Shown: one piece after another, positions 12,158-30,353 of the stretch
Position numbering within the stretch: position 1 is the stretch's first letter
Layout: every line of letters begins with the position of its first letter
Assembly: GCA_015489565.1 (NCBI GenBank)
Contig: WFZM01000004.1
Coordinates: 1-34,117, forward strand
Source of the DNA: Patescibacteria group bacterium
GTDB taxonomy: Bacteria > Patescibacteriota > Minisyncoccia > Phycocordibacterales > UBA2100
Direction of reading: 5' to 3'
DNA: 34,117 nucleotides
Position numbers and translations under genes: made by a program
Notes under the pieces: generated by a model
Seen by the model: only the letters and a program-made list of their open reading frames with translations
The model's database searches: none
Told to the model about the DNA's origin: nothing

Positions 12158-12304
12158 ATGAAAGTTAAAATTTTTGTGCTTATACTAATGGTTAATATAT
12201 TAACTTTTATTGCGCTTAGTCCACAGCAGTCTAAAGCCGCCCAGTTAAACTCATCGCAAATATCAGCCATAATAAACCTCCTTAGTACGATTCCAAATAT
12301 ATAG
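12158..12304 (+). CDS. candidate small secreted peptide (48 aa)
   Basis: Not in the ORF track (under 60 aa). MKVKIFVLILMVNILTFIALSPQQSKA|AQLNSSQISAIINLLSTIPNI has a textbook n/h/c signal peptide. TGtTACAAT box at 12103-12111. It overlaps an antisense 45-aa ORF, so it is uncertain. Confidence 0.35.
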   Translation: MKVKIFVLILMVNILTFIALSPQQSKAAQLNSSQISAIINLLSTIPNI

Positions 12305-12324
12305 AAGCAGAACAAATTTCAATA

Positions 12325-12609
12325 TTGGATAAGAAAAATTTTATTATAGGAGATTTTTGTTATATCTATACTCGCCGCTTATCTGACAACTCATTGAGTC
12401 TTAAGATGCCTCTTGGAGTTTACGCAACTGAATGTCGCGGGTTCACAACACGTGCAGGGGAAAAATATCGTATAAAATTAAAAGCTGTGGCTTGCGATAA
12501 ATCAGATACCAGTAGAATAGGTTTGGATGATAAGCTCGCTTGTGATTTAACAAAGGGGTCAAGACAGGATGTTTCGGGGTATTCAAACTGGTTTACTATT
12601 ACAGAATAA
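12325..12609 (+). CDS. hypothetical protein, possible orphan module related to paralog C-terminal domains
   Basis: TTG start; the next in-frame Met is codon 28. Contains EKYRIKLKA ... SGYSNWFTI, reminiscent of the YRI...WSNW modules in paralog A. No signal peptide. Confidence 0.3.
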   Translation: MDKKNFIIGDFCYIYTRRLSDNSLSLKMPLGVYATECRGFTTRAGEKYRIKLKAVACDKSDTSRIGLDDKLACDLTKGSRQDVSGYSNWFTITE

Positions 12610-25759: not shown

Positions 25760-26788
25760 TTAAGACTCAAGTTTAAATCTTATGATAGCGCCCAAGTTCA
25801 TACTTTGCTCACTTATATATTTTTGAAATTCTTTAGCGCTTAAATAGTTTTCCTTATCCCAAGAAAATAAATATTTAATTCCCGAAGCACTTTTTATAAC
25901 ATAAAGCTCTCCCTGAGATTTAATATTTGCCGAGATTGCTCGGGCAGATTCAAAAAGATATACGGAAAAGCTCAGTACACGAGCTTGAGGCTTAAAATTA
26001 AAGTACTGCCCAGCTTTGGCAATCACACCATAATTATCAAGAAAAAGATTTTGTGACCTTTCTTTTTTCTCGCTTTTTCTAGATGCTTTAAGGATGCTAT
26101 TTGATTCCAGCTCAAATCTTTGTATTAAAATTTGCAGACTGGAAATCAAGTTTCTCTCGGTGGGACTAAACTGCTCAAATTGCAATTTCCTGGAGCGAGA
26201 TTTCTCAGATTTAAAACTCGCTGATGACAAACCTAAAAAAGCAGGAGCATCTTCCAGGTCAAGTTTTAAACGTACCAGCAGATAAACTAATACCTTACGC
26301 GCTCTTCTTATAATTTCCCCGCCTGCATGTTTTTTAGAAATTATAGTTTTTTCCACACCGTAGAAGTCAGCCAGATAAGAAAGGATAAATTCCGCAAGCT
26401 CTTTTTTACTTTTCGGGCAAAAGTCAAGTCCCATCAAGGCTACAGCACTTTCATCACGAAAATCTATACAAGCCTTCAGATTCGCTATAAGTTTTTTTTC
26501 ATCACGGTCAAAACTAAGCTTTGCCAAGACTCTTGAAAGGTGGTGAACGCTACTGTGGTCCATATTAAGCTCAGAGGCTATAGACGAGCTTGGCAGCTTT
26601 AAATACTCCTTTGCTAAATAGACAAAAATTTTTTTAGCTCTGACTATCTTGCTTTTTCGCGAACCGTTTGTAAGCTCCATGGGGTGGAAGCTATAAAAAT
26701 CGGCTAAAATTTCTTTTATATGCACTATTGTTTGTTTCAAGCTGGGGGCACTGCTCATTATTTCCCCGGAATAAAGTTCCATGTTCAT
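25760..26788 (-). CDS. protein with two tandem DnaA C-terminal (domain IV)-like HTH modules, no AAA+ domain
   Basis: Module 1: IVHIKEILADFYSFHPMELTNGSRKSKIVRAKKIFVYLAKEYLKLPSSSIASELNMDHSSVHHLSRVLAK. Module 2: ILSYLADFYGVEKTIISKKHAGGEIIRRARKVLVYLLVRLKLDLEDAPAFLGLSSAS. Both follow the DnaA domain IV pattern (R..i..aR.iamYL...l...S...Ig...DHstV). No Walker motifs. Confidence 0.6.
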   Translation of the reverse strand: MNMELYSGEIMSSAPSLKQTIVHIKEILADFYSFHPMELTNGSRKSKIVRAKKIFVYLAKEYLKLPSSSIASELNMDHSSVHHLSRVLAKLSFDRDEKKLIANLKACIDFRDESAVALMGLDFCPKSKKELAEFILSYLADFYGVEKTIISKKHAGGEIIRRARKVLVYLLVRLKLDLEDAPAFLGLSSASFKSEKSRSRKLQFEQFSPTERNLISSLQILIQRFELESNSILKASRKSEKKERSQNLFLDNYGVIAKAGQYFNFKPQARVLSFSVYLFESARAISANIKSQGELYVIKSASGIKYLFSWDKENYLSAKEFQKYISEQSMNLGAIIRFKLES

Positions 26789-26798
26789 AACAATATAA

Positions 26799-26827
26799 AG
26801 AATACAATCTTTTTATATTTCTGTCAA
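26799..26827 (-). promoter_or_regulatory. promoter (TTGACA-17-TATTCT) for the 25760..26788 gene
   Basis: The minus strand reads TTGACA, a 17-nt spacer, then TATTCT. 10 nt to ATG 26788. Confidence 0.5.
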
Positions 26828-26845
26828 GAGGTAAATTGAAAAGAT

Positions 26846-26882
26846 AATAAAGGCGTGCGAGCTCCGCCCGCACGCCTTTATT
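26846..26882. repeat. GC-clamped hairpin (GCGTGC family) between divergent promoters
   Basis: AATAAAGGCGTGCG (26846-26859) pairs with CGCACGCCTTTATT (26869-26882) around a 9-nt loop. A-rich before and T-rich after, so it looks like a bidirectional terminator, but no gene reads into it. Confidence 0.7.
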
Positions 26883-26935
26883 TAAAAGGACTCACAAAAT
26901 CGCCTGCTTGTACATTAACTTAAAATTTTTAAAAT

Positions 26936-26964
26936 TTGACTTTAAAGCTTAATTTTTATATCAT
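26936..26964 (+). promoter_or_regulatory. promoter of the thrS leader (TTGACT-17-TATCAT)
   Basis: -35 at 26936-26941, 17-nt spacer, -10 at 26959-26964. Predicted TSS near 26971. Confidence 0.55.
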
Positions 26965-26970
26965 TTATTT

Positions 26971-27184
26971 AGCTGGAGATTGCCTTGTCTACCAAACAAG
27001 GTCAACTCTTGGGAGTTGAGAGCAATAATAAGTTGCTCCTAATCCGGCATGAAAATGAGTGCTCGAGCTAAACCCTCGAGAAGCTCGGTGGAACCGCGGT
27101 TCAGTTTTTATTTATATTTTGAATCGTCCGAGCAAGTGTGTGTTTGTATCGCTTACATACACTTGCTCGGACGATTTTTGTTTT
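26971..27184 (+). promoter_or_regulatory. T-box riboswitch leader of thrS
   Basis: T-box core GCTCGG-TGGAACC-GCGGTTC at 27083-27102. Contiguous 3' partner GAATCGT-CCGAGC at 27121-27133 (antiterminator A1/A2 with the 7-nt UGGNACC bulge). Competing 18-bp terminator at 27122-27139 / 27159-27176 plus TTTTTGTTTT. Stem III-like hairpin at 27062-27080. ACC-A displayed in a hairpin loop at 26989-26995. Confidence 0.75.
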
Positions 27185-27186
27185 CC

Positions 27187-27239
27187 CCCGGAACTTCATG
27201 ATGGAGCTTCAAGCTCCATCATGAACTTTAAGTTCCGGG
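27187..27239 (+). promoter_or_regulatory. second long hairpin in the thrS leader
   Basis: CCCGGAAC + TTCATGATGGAGC (27187-27207) pairs with GCTCCATCATGAA (27213-27225) and GTTCCGGG (27232-27239), with a 6-nt bulge. No U-tract follows. Confidence 0.7.
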
Positions 27240-27328
27240 ACGGCTTGAAAATAATTTTAATTATATTTTATTTATTATATATTAGTTATTAGTTTTTATT
27301 TATTAGTTATTATTTAATTTATTTGCCT

Positions 27329-29098
27329 ATGCCAAAAGAAGAAAAGCAAAATAACAAATTGTACAAAATTCGCCACACTCTCGCTCATGTTCTTGCAAAG
27401 GCGGTACTTGAGCTTGACCCGGATGCGAAGCTTGCAATAGGTCCTCCGGTAGATAACGGCTTTTACTATGATTTTGAGCTCACAAAGCCACTTGGTGATG
27501 AAGATTTAAAAAAGATAGAAAAACGCATGCGCAAGATAGTCACTGCGGGCTTTGAACCGGAGAAAAAAGTTTATTCTTTTGAAGAAGCAAAGCAAAAGCT
27601 CAAAGGGCAAGAATACAAACTGGAACTTTTGGAGGAATTTCACAATGCAGGGGAAGAGCTGAGTTTTTACAGCATAGCCGACTTTGAAGACCTCTGCGAG
27701 GGACCACATGTTGACTCAAGTAAAGACATAGATCCAAAGAGCTTCAAACTAAACAAGATAGCGGGCGCATACTGGCGCGGTGACGAGAAAAACAAAATGC
27801 TTACTCGCATTTACGGCCTTGCTTTTGAAACAAAAGAAGAGCTTGATGAATACTTGCAAATGCTTGAAGAAGCAAAAAAGCGCGACCACAGAGTGCTGGG
27901 TAAAGAACTTGGACTTTTCACTTTCTCAGATCTTGTCGGTCCGGGGCTCCCTCTTTGGACTCCAAAAGGAACCGTGCTTCGCGAAGAACTGGACAAATTT
28001 GTACAAGAGCTCCGGGCTAAGAAGGGCTACGAGCGAGTAACAATTCCACATCTGGCAAAGGTGGCGCTTTATGAGACTTCCGGACACTGGCAAAAATACA
28101 GTGAAGACCTCTTTAAAGTGCAAGCAAAAGAGGGTGACGATCACGACACTTATGTTCTCAAGCCGATGAACTGCCCACATCACACTCAAATATACGCTTC
28201 AAGCCCTCGTTCTTACAAGGAATTACCAAAACGCTTTGCCGAAACCACAATGGTCTACCGCGCAGAGCAGTCAGGCGAGCTTGCAGGGCTCACAAGAGTG
28301 CTTTCAATCACGCAAGACGATGCACATGTTTTCTGCCGCGAGTCACAAGTAAAAGATGAGATAAGAGCGATTTGGGATATTGTGGATAGATTTTATTCTG
28401 CGTTTGATTTGCCACTTGAGGTTAGTCTTTCTTTCCGCGATATGGAAAATCAAGATAAATACATAGGCGCGCCTGAGCTTTGGGATGCGTCAGAAAACGC
28501 CTTGCTTGAGCTTGCAAAGGAAAGAAATGCGAACTACTTCATTGACCCGGGAGAAGCAGCGTTTTATGGTCCGAAGCTTGACTTTATCGCGCGTGACTCT
28601 ATCGGTCGCAAGCATCAAGTTGCAACCATACAGCTTGACCGCAATCTGCCGGAGCGCTTTGATTTGTCTTGCATTAACGAAGAGGGCGAGAAAGAGCGTA
28701 TAGTGATGATACACGCCGCTATCACCGGCTCTCTTGAGAGATTCTCTGCAATCGCAATAGAGCACTTAGCGGGCAAATTCCCAACTTGGCTTGCGCCGGT
28801 GCAAGTCTATATAGTGCCTATTGCAGATGCACATAGTAATTACGCTCAGAAAGTCTACGGGGTGCTGAAAGAAAAAGGAGTGCGCGCAGAAATCCTAAGT
28901 CCAAAAGAATCCTTGGGCAAACGCATACGAACTTTCAAAAAAGACAAGGTTCCATATGCCCTGGTTCTTGGTGACAAAGAAGCGGGCGAAAATGCCGTAA
29001 CCGCAGAAAGGCGCGATGGCGACAAGCTTGAGATGTCACTTGATGAATTCATTAAACAAATAACAAAAGAAGTAAAAGACAGAGAATTTACTGCTTAA
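27329..29098 (+). CDS. thrS: threonine--tRNA ligase (lacks the N-terminal TGS domain)
   Basis: Starts in the editing (N2) domain at the HxxxH motif (IRHTLAHVLAKAV). Class II core (KPMNCPHHTQIY, YRAEQSGELAGLTRV, FTQDDAH-like ITQDDAHVFC) and anticodon-binding domain. ATG 27329 is preferred over TTG 27323. Confidence 0.93.
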   Translation: MPKEEKQNNKLYKIRHTLAHVLAKAVLELDPDAKLAIGPPVDNGFYYDFELTKPLGDEDLKKIEKRMRKIVTAGFEPEKKVYSFEEAKQKLKGQEYKLELLEEFHNAGEELSFYSIADFEDLCEGPHVDSSKDIDPKSFKLNKIAGAYWRGDEKNKMLTRIYGLAFETKEELDEYLQMLEEAKKRDHRVLGKELGLFTFSDLVGPGLPLWTPKGTVLREELDKFVQELRAKKGYERVTIPHLAKVALYETSGHWQKYSEDLFKVQAKEGDDHDTYVLKPMNCPHHTQIYASSPRSYKELPKRFAETTMVYRAEQSGELAGLTRVLSITQDDAHVFCRESQVKDEIRAIWDIVDRFYSAFDLPLEVSLSFRDMENQDKYIGAPELWDASENALLELAKERNANYFIDPGEAAFYGPKLDFIARDSIGRKHQVATIQLDRNLPERFDLSCINEEGEKERIVMIHAAITGSLERFSAIAIEHLAGKFPTWLAPVQVYIVPIADAHSNYAQKVYGVLKEKGVRAEILSPKESLGKRIRTFKKDKVPYALVLGDKEAGENAVTAERRDGDKLEMSLDEFIKQITKEVKDREFTA

Positions 29099-29102
29099 AT
29101 TG

Positions 29103-29111
29103 TGCTAAAAT
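29103..29111 (+). promoter_or_regulatory. extended -10 promoter (TGcTAAAAT), 6 nt before ATG 29118
   Basis: TG at 29103-29104 and TAAAAT at 29106-29111. Lies just after the thrS stop. Confidence 0.5.
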
Positions 29112-29117
29112 AGTAAT

Positions 29118-30353
29118 ATGAAACTATCAGAAGATTTAAAAAGGCGCGGGTTGATTCATAACGCTACGGAAAATATAGAAAAAGTGCTTGACGAAGAAAA
29201 ACCGGTCTTTTATATAGGCGCCGACCCGACAGCTGACTCTTTGCATCTGGGCAATTTACTTGGGCTTATTACCGCAAAAAGGCTGGTCAACGCCGGGCTT
29301 AAAGCGATACTGCTTGTGGGCGGGGGTACGGGAAGAATAGGCGACCCCAAGCCGGACGCAGAAAGAAAATTACTTGATGAAAATACTCTTGAGAAAAATA
29401 TTGAGGCTATATCTCGACAATACAAGCGCATAGTTGATAGCGACTCTGTGCAAATAGTAAATAACTATGAATGGCTGGGGAAATGGAACTTAATAGATTT
29501 TTTGCGTGACATAGGTAAAAACTTCACAGTTAACAATCTCATAAAAAAAGATGCTATAGCCGAGCGTTTAAAAAGCGACATAGGGCTTTCATATACCGAA
29601 TTTGCTTACCCCTTGCTCCAAGCTACTGACTTTTTGGAACTTTATAAAAGATATAACTGCAAACTGCAAATAGGTGGCTCCGACCAGTGGGGCAATATCG
29701 TAGCAGGAGTTGACTTGATACGCAGAAAAGAAGGTTCTGATGTTGCCGCTTTTACTTTCCCTTTGCTTATCGACAAATCATCCGGCAAAAAATTTGGTAA
29801 GTCTGAAGGAAATGCCATATGGCTCTCTGCAGAAAAAACAAGTCCTTATACTTTTTATCAAGCACTTCTAAACAGCAGTGATAAAATGGTGGAAGAGCTT
29901 TTGCTAAAGCTCACTCTGCTTGATGTAGACGAAATAAACAAAATACTCAAAGAGTGGGAAAAAGCTCCACATGAGAGGCTGGCGCAAAAGACTCTTGCCT
30001 TTGAGGTAACTAAAATCGTTCACGGAGAAAATGCGGCCCGGGCTGCGGAAAAAGTAAGCGAAATACTTTTTGGCAAGGAGTTTAAAAAACTAGGCAAAGA
30101 CGAGAAAGAAATGCTTATAAAAGAAGCACCGAGCTTTAGCGCAGAGCAGCTCTCCGGAGATATTGTAGAAGATTTAATAACACTTTCTTTAGCATCATCC
30201 AAGCGCGAAGCTAGAGAATTCTTGGAAAATTCATCCATAAAAGCTTTTGGCAAAAAACTGGGACCAGAGGATTCGCTCACTGAGCTAGATTTTATAGATG
30301 ATATACTTGTGCTTAAAAGAGGCAAGAAAAAAACAGTTGTAATATACAAGTAG
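29118..30353 (+). CDS. tyrS: tyrosine--tRNA ligase
   Basis: HIGH-type motif (ADSLHLGNLLG), KMSKS-type motif (KFGKSEGNAIWL), GGSDQWGNI and a C-terminal S4-like domain. Confidence 0.93.
   Translation: MKLSEDLKRRGLIHNATENIEKVLDEEKPVFYIGADPTADSLHLGNLLGLITAKRLVNAGLKAILLVGGGTGRIGDPKPDAERKLLDENTLEKNIEAISRQYKRIVDSDSVQIVNNYEWLGKWNLIDFLRDIGKNFTVNNLIKKDAIAERLKSDIGLSYTEFAYPLLQATDFLELYKRYNCKLQIGGSDQWGNIVAGVDLIRRKEGSDVAAFTFPLLIDKSSGKKFGKSEGNAIWLSAEKTSPYTFYQALLNSSDKMVEELLLKLTLLDVDEINKILKEWEKAPHERLAQKTLAFEVTKIVHGENAARAAEKVSEILFGKEFKKLGKDEKEMLIKEAPSFSAEQLSGDIVEDLITLSLASSKREAREFLENSSIKAFGKKLGPEDSLTELDFIDDILVLKRGKKKTVVIYK

Follow-up and report, generated by a model that had tools for sequence, protein, structure and literature searches.

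Introduction

The leader of the threonyl-tRNA synthetase gene thrS in a Patescibacteria group bacterium raises the question of whether a T-box riboswitch can control transcription with a decoding domain from which the elbow platform, the K-turn and the S-turn specifier loop are all absent. T-boxes serve as a model of how one structured RNA recognises another. Four classes of them are distinguished, and the elbow platform is deemed necessary for those that act on transcription: these generally depend on a platform in Stem I against which the tRNA elbow stacks (PMC7583486). The leader described here lies in a 34,117-nt stretch of DNA (contig WFZM01000004.1 of assembly GCA_015489565.1), which is called the window in what follows. 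An earlier note on this DNA had proposed a T-box antiterminator and terminator upstream of thrS, with a reduced and atypical Stem I. From the sequence of the leader and those of its relatives, we conclude that it is very probably a working transcription-attenuation T-box riboswitch that is specific for tRNA-Thr(GGU) and controls thrS and probably tyrS. Few mechanisms of gene regulation can be recognised from sequence in ultrasmall bacteria that have not been cultured, and this would be one of them.

Genomic context, promoter and downstream genes

The assembly has a size of 664 kb, a G+C content of 40% and a completeness of 96.6%. A comparison of protein homologues placed the ThrRS of the window closest to those of metagenome-assembled genomes (MAGs) of Parcubacteria/Paceibacterota, Nomurabacteria and other Patescibacteria. 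The suggestion that the genome is CPR-like is borne out by its size and by the nearest ThrRS relatives, which all come from Parcubacteria/Paceibacterota MAGs. A DnaA-domain-IV-like gene is located upstream of the leader on the minus strand (25760-26788), and a G+C-rich 17-bp hairpin (26846-26882) was observed between the divergent promoters of this gene and of the thrS leader. Elsewhere in the genome, only partial matches of 13-14 nt to this hairpin were found.

All the features described below are on the plus strand. A sigma-70-type promoter of the form TTGACT-17 nt-TATCAT occupies positions 26936-26964, with TTGACT at 26936-26941 and TATCAT at 26959-26964. It was the top promoter-like site of the region in a promoter scan and has 10 of 12 consensus matches, in agreement with the promoter that had been read there before. 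Placed from the promoter position, the transcript start would fall at about 26970-26972, at the foot of the helix P1 that closes the decoding domain. In the family of related leaders presented below, every one of the 41 members has a TAnnnT hexamer that begins 9-20 nt upstream of the model start; in 25 of them it begins at -12 or -11. Since a -10 box lies directly before P1 in all 41, the transcript is expected to start at P1, so that no upstream RNA could supply the missing Stem I.

The thrS gene (27329..29098) encodes a threonyl-tRNA synthetase with the Pfam domains tRNA-synt_2b, HGTP_anticodon and tRNA_SAD. It is followed by tyrS (29118..30353; Pfam tRNA-synt_1b), which begins 19 nt past the thrS stop codon. 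Site scans of the plus strand between the two genes (29099-29117) found no promoter-like or terminator-like site. Because the gap is this short and holds neither element, thrS and tyrS are probably co-transcribed, and the threonine-specific switch probably also sets TyrRS levels.

The region between the switch and thrS has features of its own. Just past the T-box terminator, a strong hairpin without U-tract was observed at 27187-27239 (-36.7 kcal/mol). Its core, ATGGAGCUUCAAGCUCCAU, is present at seven other sites of the genome (C6, C8, C11, C13, C14, C23 and C40), and at most of these sites the copy lies between an A-run and a T-run, which gives it the look of a standard bidirectional terminator. 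As the gap between T-box and start codon is much shorter in relatives, this hairpin looks like a local insertion and not like a part of the switch. It is followed by about 90 nt of near-pure A/T with short internal repeats (27240-27328), which extend to the thrS ATG at 27329. No clear Shine-Dalgarno sequence was seen before the thrS start (GCCUAUG).

Discriminator half of the leader

The segment 27049-27082 was aligned to RF00230, the Rfam family of T-boxes, with high posterior probability. It comprises a linker that ends in GAGUG (27057-27061), then Stem III, formed by CUCGAG/CUCGAG (27062-27067 / 27075-27080), and AA (27081-27082). GAGUG is an instance of the RRRNG motif, and the whole corresponds to the RRRNG-Stem III-AA motif as it has been defined (PMC7778990). 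The antiterminator follows at 27083-27133, where it is supported by the RF00230 alignment, by folding and by covariation of its two helices A1 and A2. A1 (GCUCGG, 27083-27088) pairs with 27128-27133, and A2 (GCGGUUC, 27096-27102) pairs with 27121-27127 across an 18-nt loop. Between their 5' strands lies the T-box bulge UGGAACC (27089-27095), which is shared by 45 of the 46 aligned hits. The return strand GAAUCGU-CCGAGC (GAAUCGUCCGAGC) occupies 27121-27133. Stem III, A1, the bulge, A2 and the return strand had all been assigned earlier, and every one of their coordinates was confirmed on the sequence of 26700-27400.

An intrinsic terminator was found by folding at 27121-27184. Its 23-bp stem (27121-27143 / 27155-27177) is followed by the U-tract UUUUUGUUUU, and its energy amounts to -40.9 kcal/mol. 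The earlier note had described a stem of 18 bp; the alternation with the antiterminator and the U-run hold as described, but the stem is longer by this count. The terminator was not listed by a terminator scan because its stem and loop are beyond the limits of the scan, while folding shows it clearly. When the alternatives were folded, as had been recommended, Stem III plus the antiterminator gave -22.9 to -25.3 kcal/mol against the -40.9 kcal/mol of the terminator. The 5' arm of the terminator is the 3' strand of the antiterminator (27121-27133 is common to both), and the two structures are thus mutually exclusive.

The published T-boxes with a specifier in an apical loop are translational (10.1101/2023.02.28.530422; PMC10482949). 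By analogy, the leader could be viewed as a translational switch that sequesters the ribosome-binding site, in the manner of class III/IV short-Stem-I T-boxes of Actinobacteria. This reading is very unlikely, given that the alternative helix is a G+C-rich hairpin of 23 bp with the U-tract directly after it, that the start codon lies about 145 nt beyond the terminator, and that nothing from the switch pairs with the start codon. Moreover, the same geometry, in which the 5' arm of the terminator starts inside the 3' strand of the antiterminator and a T-run comes at once after the hairpin, is present in 37 of the 41 members of the family. Termination of transcription is therefore retained as the output of the leader. 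At the level of sequence, the discriminator half has every feature by which a T-box is recognised. On this ground, the leader would sense at the 3' end whether the tRNA is aminoacylated, and would form terminator or antiterminator accordingly, by the established mechanism.

Match to the T-box family model

At curated thresholds, no match to any RNA family was returned by Rfam across the window. In E-value mode, RF00230 aligned to 26920-27134 of the window with 26.7 bits (E = 4e-4), and over the 664-kb genome the thrS leader was the sole match (E = 1.3e-4). The gathering threshold of RF00230 is 93 bits and was not reached. Only AGUG, Stem III and the antiterminator were well aligned, the Stem I half being skipped, and the gap between 26.7 bits and the cut-off is attributed to the absence of a canonical Stem I. 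The covariance search that the earlier note had called for thus returned a significant match, locally and over the genome, but one far under the curated threshold.

By RF00230 and by motif scan, the thrS leader is the sole T-box-like element detectable in the genome. The motif scan itself found strings of the form TGGNACC[AG]CG at seven further sites of the genome, so that an ordinary promoter, some hairpins and a terminator might happen to contain UGGNACC by chance. In the whole-genome search none of these seven sites matched RF00230, and the folding z-score of the whole leader against shuffles is -8.6. With the strong conservation and covariation among orthologous leaders reported below, the probability of a chance resemblance is negligible, and the comparative data refute it for practical purposes.

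Decoding domain

The minimum-energy fold closes positions 26972-27048 (77 nt) as a four-way junction that consists, in order, of P1, the strand GAUUG, the hairpins P2, P3a and P3b, the strand CUAA and the return of P1. P1 is the closing helix of the domain and is formed by GCUGGA (26972-26977) and UCCGGC (27043-27048); it is seen in the fold and supported by covariation in the family, where six of its six pairs change on both sides. The junction strand GAUUG (J1/2, 26978-26982) is present in 34 of the 46 aligned hits, with the variants AAUUG and AGUUG.

P2 is the specifier hairpin (26983-27001). It has a 6-bp stem (26983-26988 / 26996-27001) and a 7-nt loop, CUACCAA (26989-26995), in which the threonine codon ACC (26991-26993) is followed by the purine A26994. 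This specifier matches the amino acid of the regulated gene thrS. In the model alignment all six stem pairs covary and 96.6% of the cells are paired. The loop is exactly CUACCAA in 28 of the 46 aligned hits, and ACC is found in the loop in 40 of 41 members, the remaining one having ACA. It had been claimed that the codon lies in a terminal loop and not in an internal Specifier loop, and the family agrees with this. The same hairpin had been taken for a minimal Stem I. The hairpin (26982-26988 / 26996-27002) and its ACC are indeed present, but they form one arm of a conserved four-way junction and do not stand alone.

P2 is abutted with zero linker by P3a (27002-27019), in which UCAACUC and GAGUUGA enclose the loop UUGG. 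P3a is abutted in turn by P3b (27020-27038), in which GAGCAAU and GUUGCUC enclose the loop AAUAA. P3b abuts the second junction strand CUAA (J3/1, 27039-27042). CUAA stands before the 3' strand of P1 in 32 of the 46 aligned hits, in the contexts CCUAA (21), ACUAA (5), GCUAA (4) and UCUAA (2). The two hairpins were drawn from the fold. Since their sequences cannot be aligned among relatives, their support is folding energy and not column covariation: the segment between P2 and CUAA has a mean folding z of -2.1 in the family and a z of -5.0 in the window. Among 35 distinct sequences of this segment, two clear abutting hairpins were found in 17, and one hairpin with a weak mini-hairpin in another 17. 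The loop of P3a is A-rich in about half of the members; that of the window is UUGG.

In P3a and P3b of the window, inspection by eye recognised no S-turn, purine string or pseudoknot pairing. The two short hairpins stand where Stem II and the IIA/B pseudoknot of a class III T-box would be. The conserved CUAA recalls only loosely the CCGUUA-type F-box of the aspS and trpE leaders of relatives. In addition, the GAU and UAA strands beside P1 may resemble the UAA/GAN internal-loop motif, and this resemblance is a lead. K-turn and distal-platform motifs had been sought in vain in the earlier reading; in keeping with this, the Stem I positions of RF00230 stay unaligned and the region folds as the four-way junction.

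Other arrangements of the domain were considered and rejected. An alternative register of the closing helix, GAUU/AAUC, is out because members with GCAGG/CCUGC, GCGAG/CUCGC, AGCU/AGCU or GGC/GCC keep P1 and cannot form this alternative. Other ACC or ACN triplets were weighed as specifier, for example the ACC in the loop of Stem III (27072-27074), and were discarded since they are not conserved in relatives. Finally, downstream sequence was inspected by eye for a pseudoknot partner of the P3b loop AAUAA; the sole complement lies in the A+U-rich loop of A2 and is not conserved.

Cognate tRNA

Three tRNA-Thr genes were found in this genome with Aragorn, with the anticodons GGU, CGU and UGU; the GGU gene lies on contig C24 at 12272-12345. 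All three have U73 and no encoded CCA. The 3' end of mature tRNA-Thr is accordingly UCCA, the exact complement of the UGGA of the bulge. The earlier note had asked for a tRNA-Thr(GGU) gene with U as the discriminator base; the gene is present, and U73 is found in it as in both other tRNA-Thr. Of the three, tRNA-Thr(GGU) alone pairs fully with ACC. In sequence, the loop segment UACCA is complementary to U33-A37 (UGGUA) of this tRNA, and as the second loop position is U, C or A in relatives, pairing past the three codon bases is not required. The specifier ACC ends in C, which agrees with the known 'C-rule' (PMC7778990).

A hairpin with an anticodon-loop-shaped 7-nt loop in front of thrS also calls to mind autoregulation by the synthetase. 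The translational operator of Escherichia coli thrS shows an anticodon and binds ThrRS. The two are both thrS leaders with an anticodon-arm-like hairpin, and the leader of the window could by this likeness be an operator of the same type, whose hairpin would mimic the anticodon arm and bind the synthetase. This is extremely unlikely: the loop shows the codon ACC and not a threonine anticodon (NGU), which makes it complementary to tRNA-Thr and not a mimic of it, and the hairpin is joined to a complete T-box discriminator whose UGGA bulge matches U73. Furthermore, the element lies 330 nt from the start codon, too far to compete with the ribosome. The leader of the window thus appears to be built for tRNA, as a T-box would be.

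Family in related Patescibacteria

A search with RF00230 by RNA alone, below threshold, was carried out in 61 related genomes. It yielded 28 T-box-like loci of 19-67 bits, none of them above the 93-bit threshold. Fifteen loci have a UGGA bulge; 14 of these precede thrS and the fifteenth (L012) leaves its contig before any open reading frame. The layout of P1, GAUUG, a hairpin with ACC, further hairpins, CUAA and the return of P1 was found in 13 of the 15. The remaining loci of the 28 precede aspS-type, trpE-type and other genes, and they have UGGC or UGGU bulges and different decoding domains. In parallel, upstream regions of ThrRS homologues in named MAGs provided further members in Parcubacteria, Nomurabacteria, Minisyncoccia, Falkowbacteria and Komeilibacteria, among others. 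Altogether, the four-way-junction layout is common to about 40 thrS leaders of related Patescibacteria.

In 39 of 41 members, thrS starts no more than 700 nt downstream of the end of the model. For the loci L030-L109, which were picked through ThrRS, the link to thrS exists by construction, while those from the RF00230 search of 61 genomes and from the R1 search of 151 genomes were found by RNA alone. R1 is a covariance model that was built from 15 members and that specifies only the pairs of P1, P2, A1 and A2; its E-values are rough because of a short calibration. In an even sample of 151 genomes from the order it matched in 30, with about 19 full-length matches of more than 40 bits. A phylum-wide sample gave weak hits only (33-45 bits), which on inspection were thrS T-boxes with other decoding designs. 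The four-way-junction form is therefore concentrated in this order and in some neighbouring CPR groups and does not extend through the phylum as a whole. R1 detects elements that are missed by standard annotation.

Covariation was observed in two alignments. In a MAFFT alignment of the 15 members, which is not fitted to structure, 95.2% of the cells pair, against 77.7% in shuffles and 27-46% with slid partners, and 15 of the 21 pairs change on both sides. When 45 distinct sequences were aligned to R1, 92.6% of the cells paired against 69.4% in shuffles. Both-side changes were seen here in 20 of 21 pairs, including all six of P1 and all six of P2. The helices with strong covariation are P1, the specifier hairpin, A1 and A2. 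The earlier note had asked for covariation in homologous leaders, and had made its reading depend on conservation of the bulge or of the terminator alternation in orthologous thrS leaders. All were found, with UGGAACC in 45/46, ACC in the loop in 40/41 and the alternation in 37/41.

These data also bear on whether the leader is the relic of a decayed canonical T-box. In such a relic the 5' region would not decode tRNA, and what is left of the switch, discriminator and terminator, would be a simple attenuator or terminator that works constitutively. The unaligned Stem I part of RF00230 and the 26.7 bits against a 93-bit cut-off are what such a relic could give. Nevertheless, constraint on the leader is strongest in the 5' domain: across about 40 genomes its ACC, GAUUG and CUAA are conserved, and every pair of P1 and P2 shows compensatory changes. 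A relic would not retain such features, and decay is highly improbable. A functional decoding domain is the reading that is kept.

Several other leaders came up in these searches. Four loci (L003, L008, L014 and L016) are aspS-type genes whose T-boxes combine a UGGC bulge with a 6-nt apical loop that contains GAC-A (for example GCUG-CUGACA-CAGC). Next come a Stem II-like helix with AGUAGA, a hairpin of the form CGGG...CCCGUUUA and then an intrinsic terminator, so that a decoding domain like that of class III is combined with a transcriptional platform. Another locus (L023) has AAC in the loop and a UGGU bulge. In six loci (L007, L010, L011, L017, L021 and L118), the same kind of leader precedes a short ThrRS of about 406-413 aa that aligns only from residue 178-185 of the window protein and is without the N-terminal region that holds the editing and SAD domains. 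The thrS leader of L007 (genome G009) is reduced further, to a single small GCUACC hairpin directly before Stem III, with no four-way junction.

Proposed mechanism

Transcription would start at the foot of P1, and the first 77 nt would fold as the four-way junction. Its first arm, P2, would present ACC in an anticodon-loop-like loop of 7 nt, C-U-ACC-A-A, which would pair with the anticodon GGU. An uncharged tRNA, once bound, would pair through its 3' end UCCA with the UGGA of the bulge; this would stabilise the weaker antiterminator stacked on Stem III and lead to readthrough. With a charged tRNA, the 23-bp terminator, which is by far the stronger of the two structures, would form and transcription would stop at the U-tract. 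This scheme builds on direct observations: the sequence elements, two structures that exclude each other, a tRNA that matches, and conservation and covariation throughout the family. The binding of tRNA itself, and the way in which the junction would substitute for the missing parts of Stem I, are what we infer from them.

By position, we would tentatively equate P2 with Stem I, P3a with Stem II and P3b with a flush hairpin that replaces the IIA/B pseudoknot. A flush hairpin can replace the IIA/B pseudoknot, which acts as a hinge, with only a sixfold loss of binding (PMC10482949). The three arms would be joined by zero-length linkers as in class III, and P1 with GAUUG and CUAA would be an added clamp that ties them shut.

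Comparison with known T-boxes

Among the papers searched, no report of T-boxes in Patescibacteria, CPR or Parcubacteria was found; the short-Stem-I model of TBDB was searched in Actinobacteria only. The proposal that the leader extends the distribution of T-boxes is in line with this, as no paper in the literature searched links T-boxes with the phylum Patescibacteria. The leader is a genuine T-box, and its design, an apical-loop specifier in a four-way junction, is not described in the T-box papers searched.

The class I transcriptional T-boxes (RF00230), such as those of Bacillus subtilis tyrS and thrS, have the same logic and the same 3' half as the thrS leader. Both have a specifier that matches the synthetase, the RRRNG-Stem III-AA motif, a UGGN bulge that matches the discriminator base and an antiterminator opposed to a stronger terminator. 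By contrast, the thrS leader lacks a long Stem I, a K-turn, an internal specifier loop with an S-turn, an AG bulge and a distal double T-loop platform. Neither a Stem II S-turn nor a IIA/B pseudoknot is recognisable in it, and its codon is in an apical loop inside a four-way junction. The class II glyQS T-boxes are also transcriptional and without the S-turn Stem II domain, but they retain a long Stem I, the elbow platform and an internal specifier loop, and they are specific for glycine.

The class III T-boxes with an 'ultrashort' Stem I, found on ileS in Actinobacteria (Nocardia farcinica, Mycobacterium tuberculosis and M. smegmatis), have an apical-loop specifier and no elbow platform, like the thrS leader. 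Their loop has 5 or 6 nt, they depend on an S-turn in a long Stem II and on a IIA/B pseudoknot, and they are translational and all on ileS (10.1101/2023.02.28.530422; PMC10482949). They clamp the anticodon stem-loop between Stem I and the S-turn of Stem II (PMC10482949). In the thrS leader, by comparison, a 7-nt loop is followed by two short helices that are plain hairpins, and an additional helix, P1 with its strands GAUUG and CUAA, closes the module; the output is a terminator, the gene thrS and the lineage Patescibacteria. What is unusual is thus the combination of an apical-loop specifier, a transcription terminator and thrS, and not shortness alone. A conserved, covarying family couples a very small apical-loop decoding domain with a strong terminator, on thrS instead of ileS. 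Counted from P1 through the antiterminator, the leader measures about 165 nt and is a candidate for a compact natural tRNA sensor.

We are evenly divided on whether these leaders form a fifth architectural class beside the four recognised ones. If they do, elbow docking is not required for terminator-type T-boxes. Such a class would be defined by a cloverleaf-like junction at the 5' end of the transcript, an anticodon-loop-like heptaloop and a mainly loop-loop contact with the tRNA, without elbow platform, S-turn or pseudoknot. It would act co-transcriptionally, and many Patescibacteria would have it as their principal and often their sole T-box.
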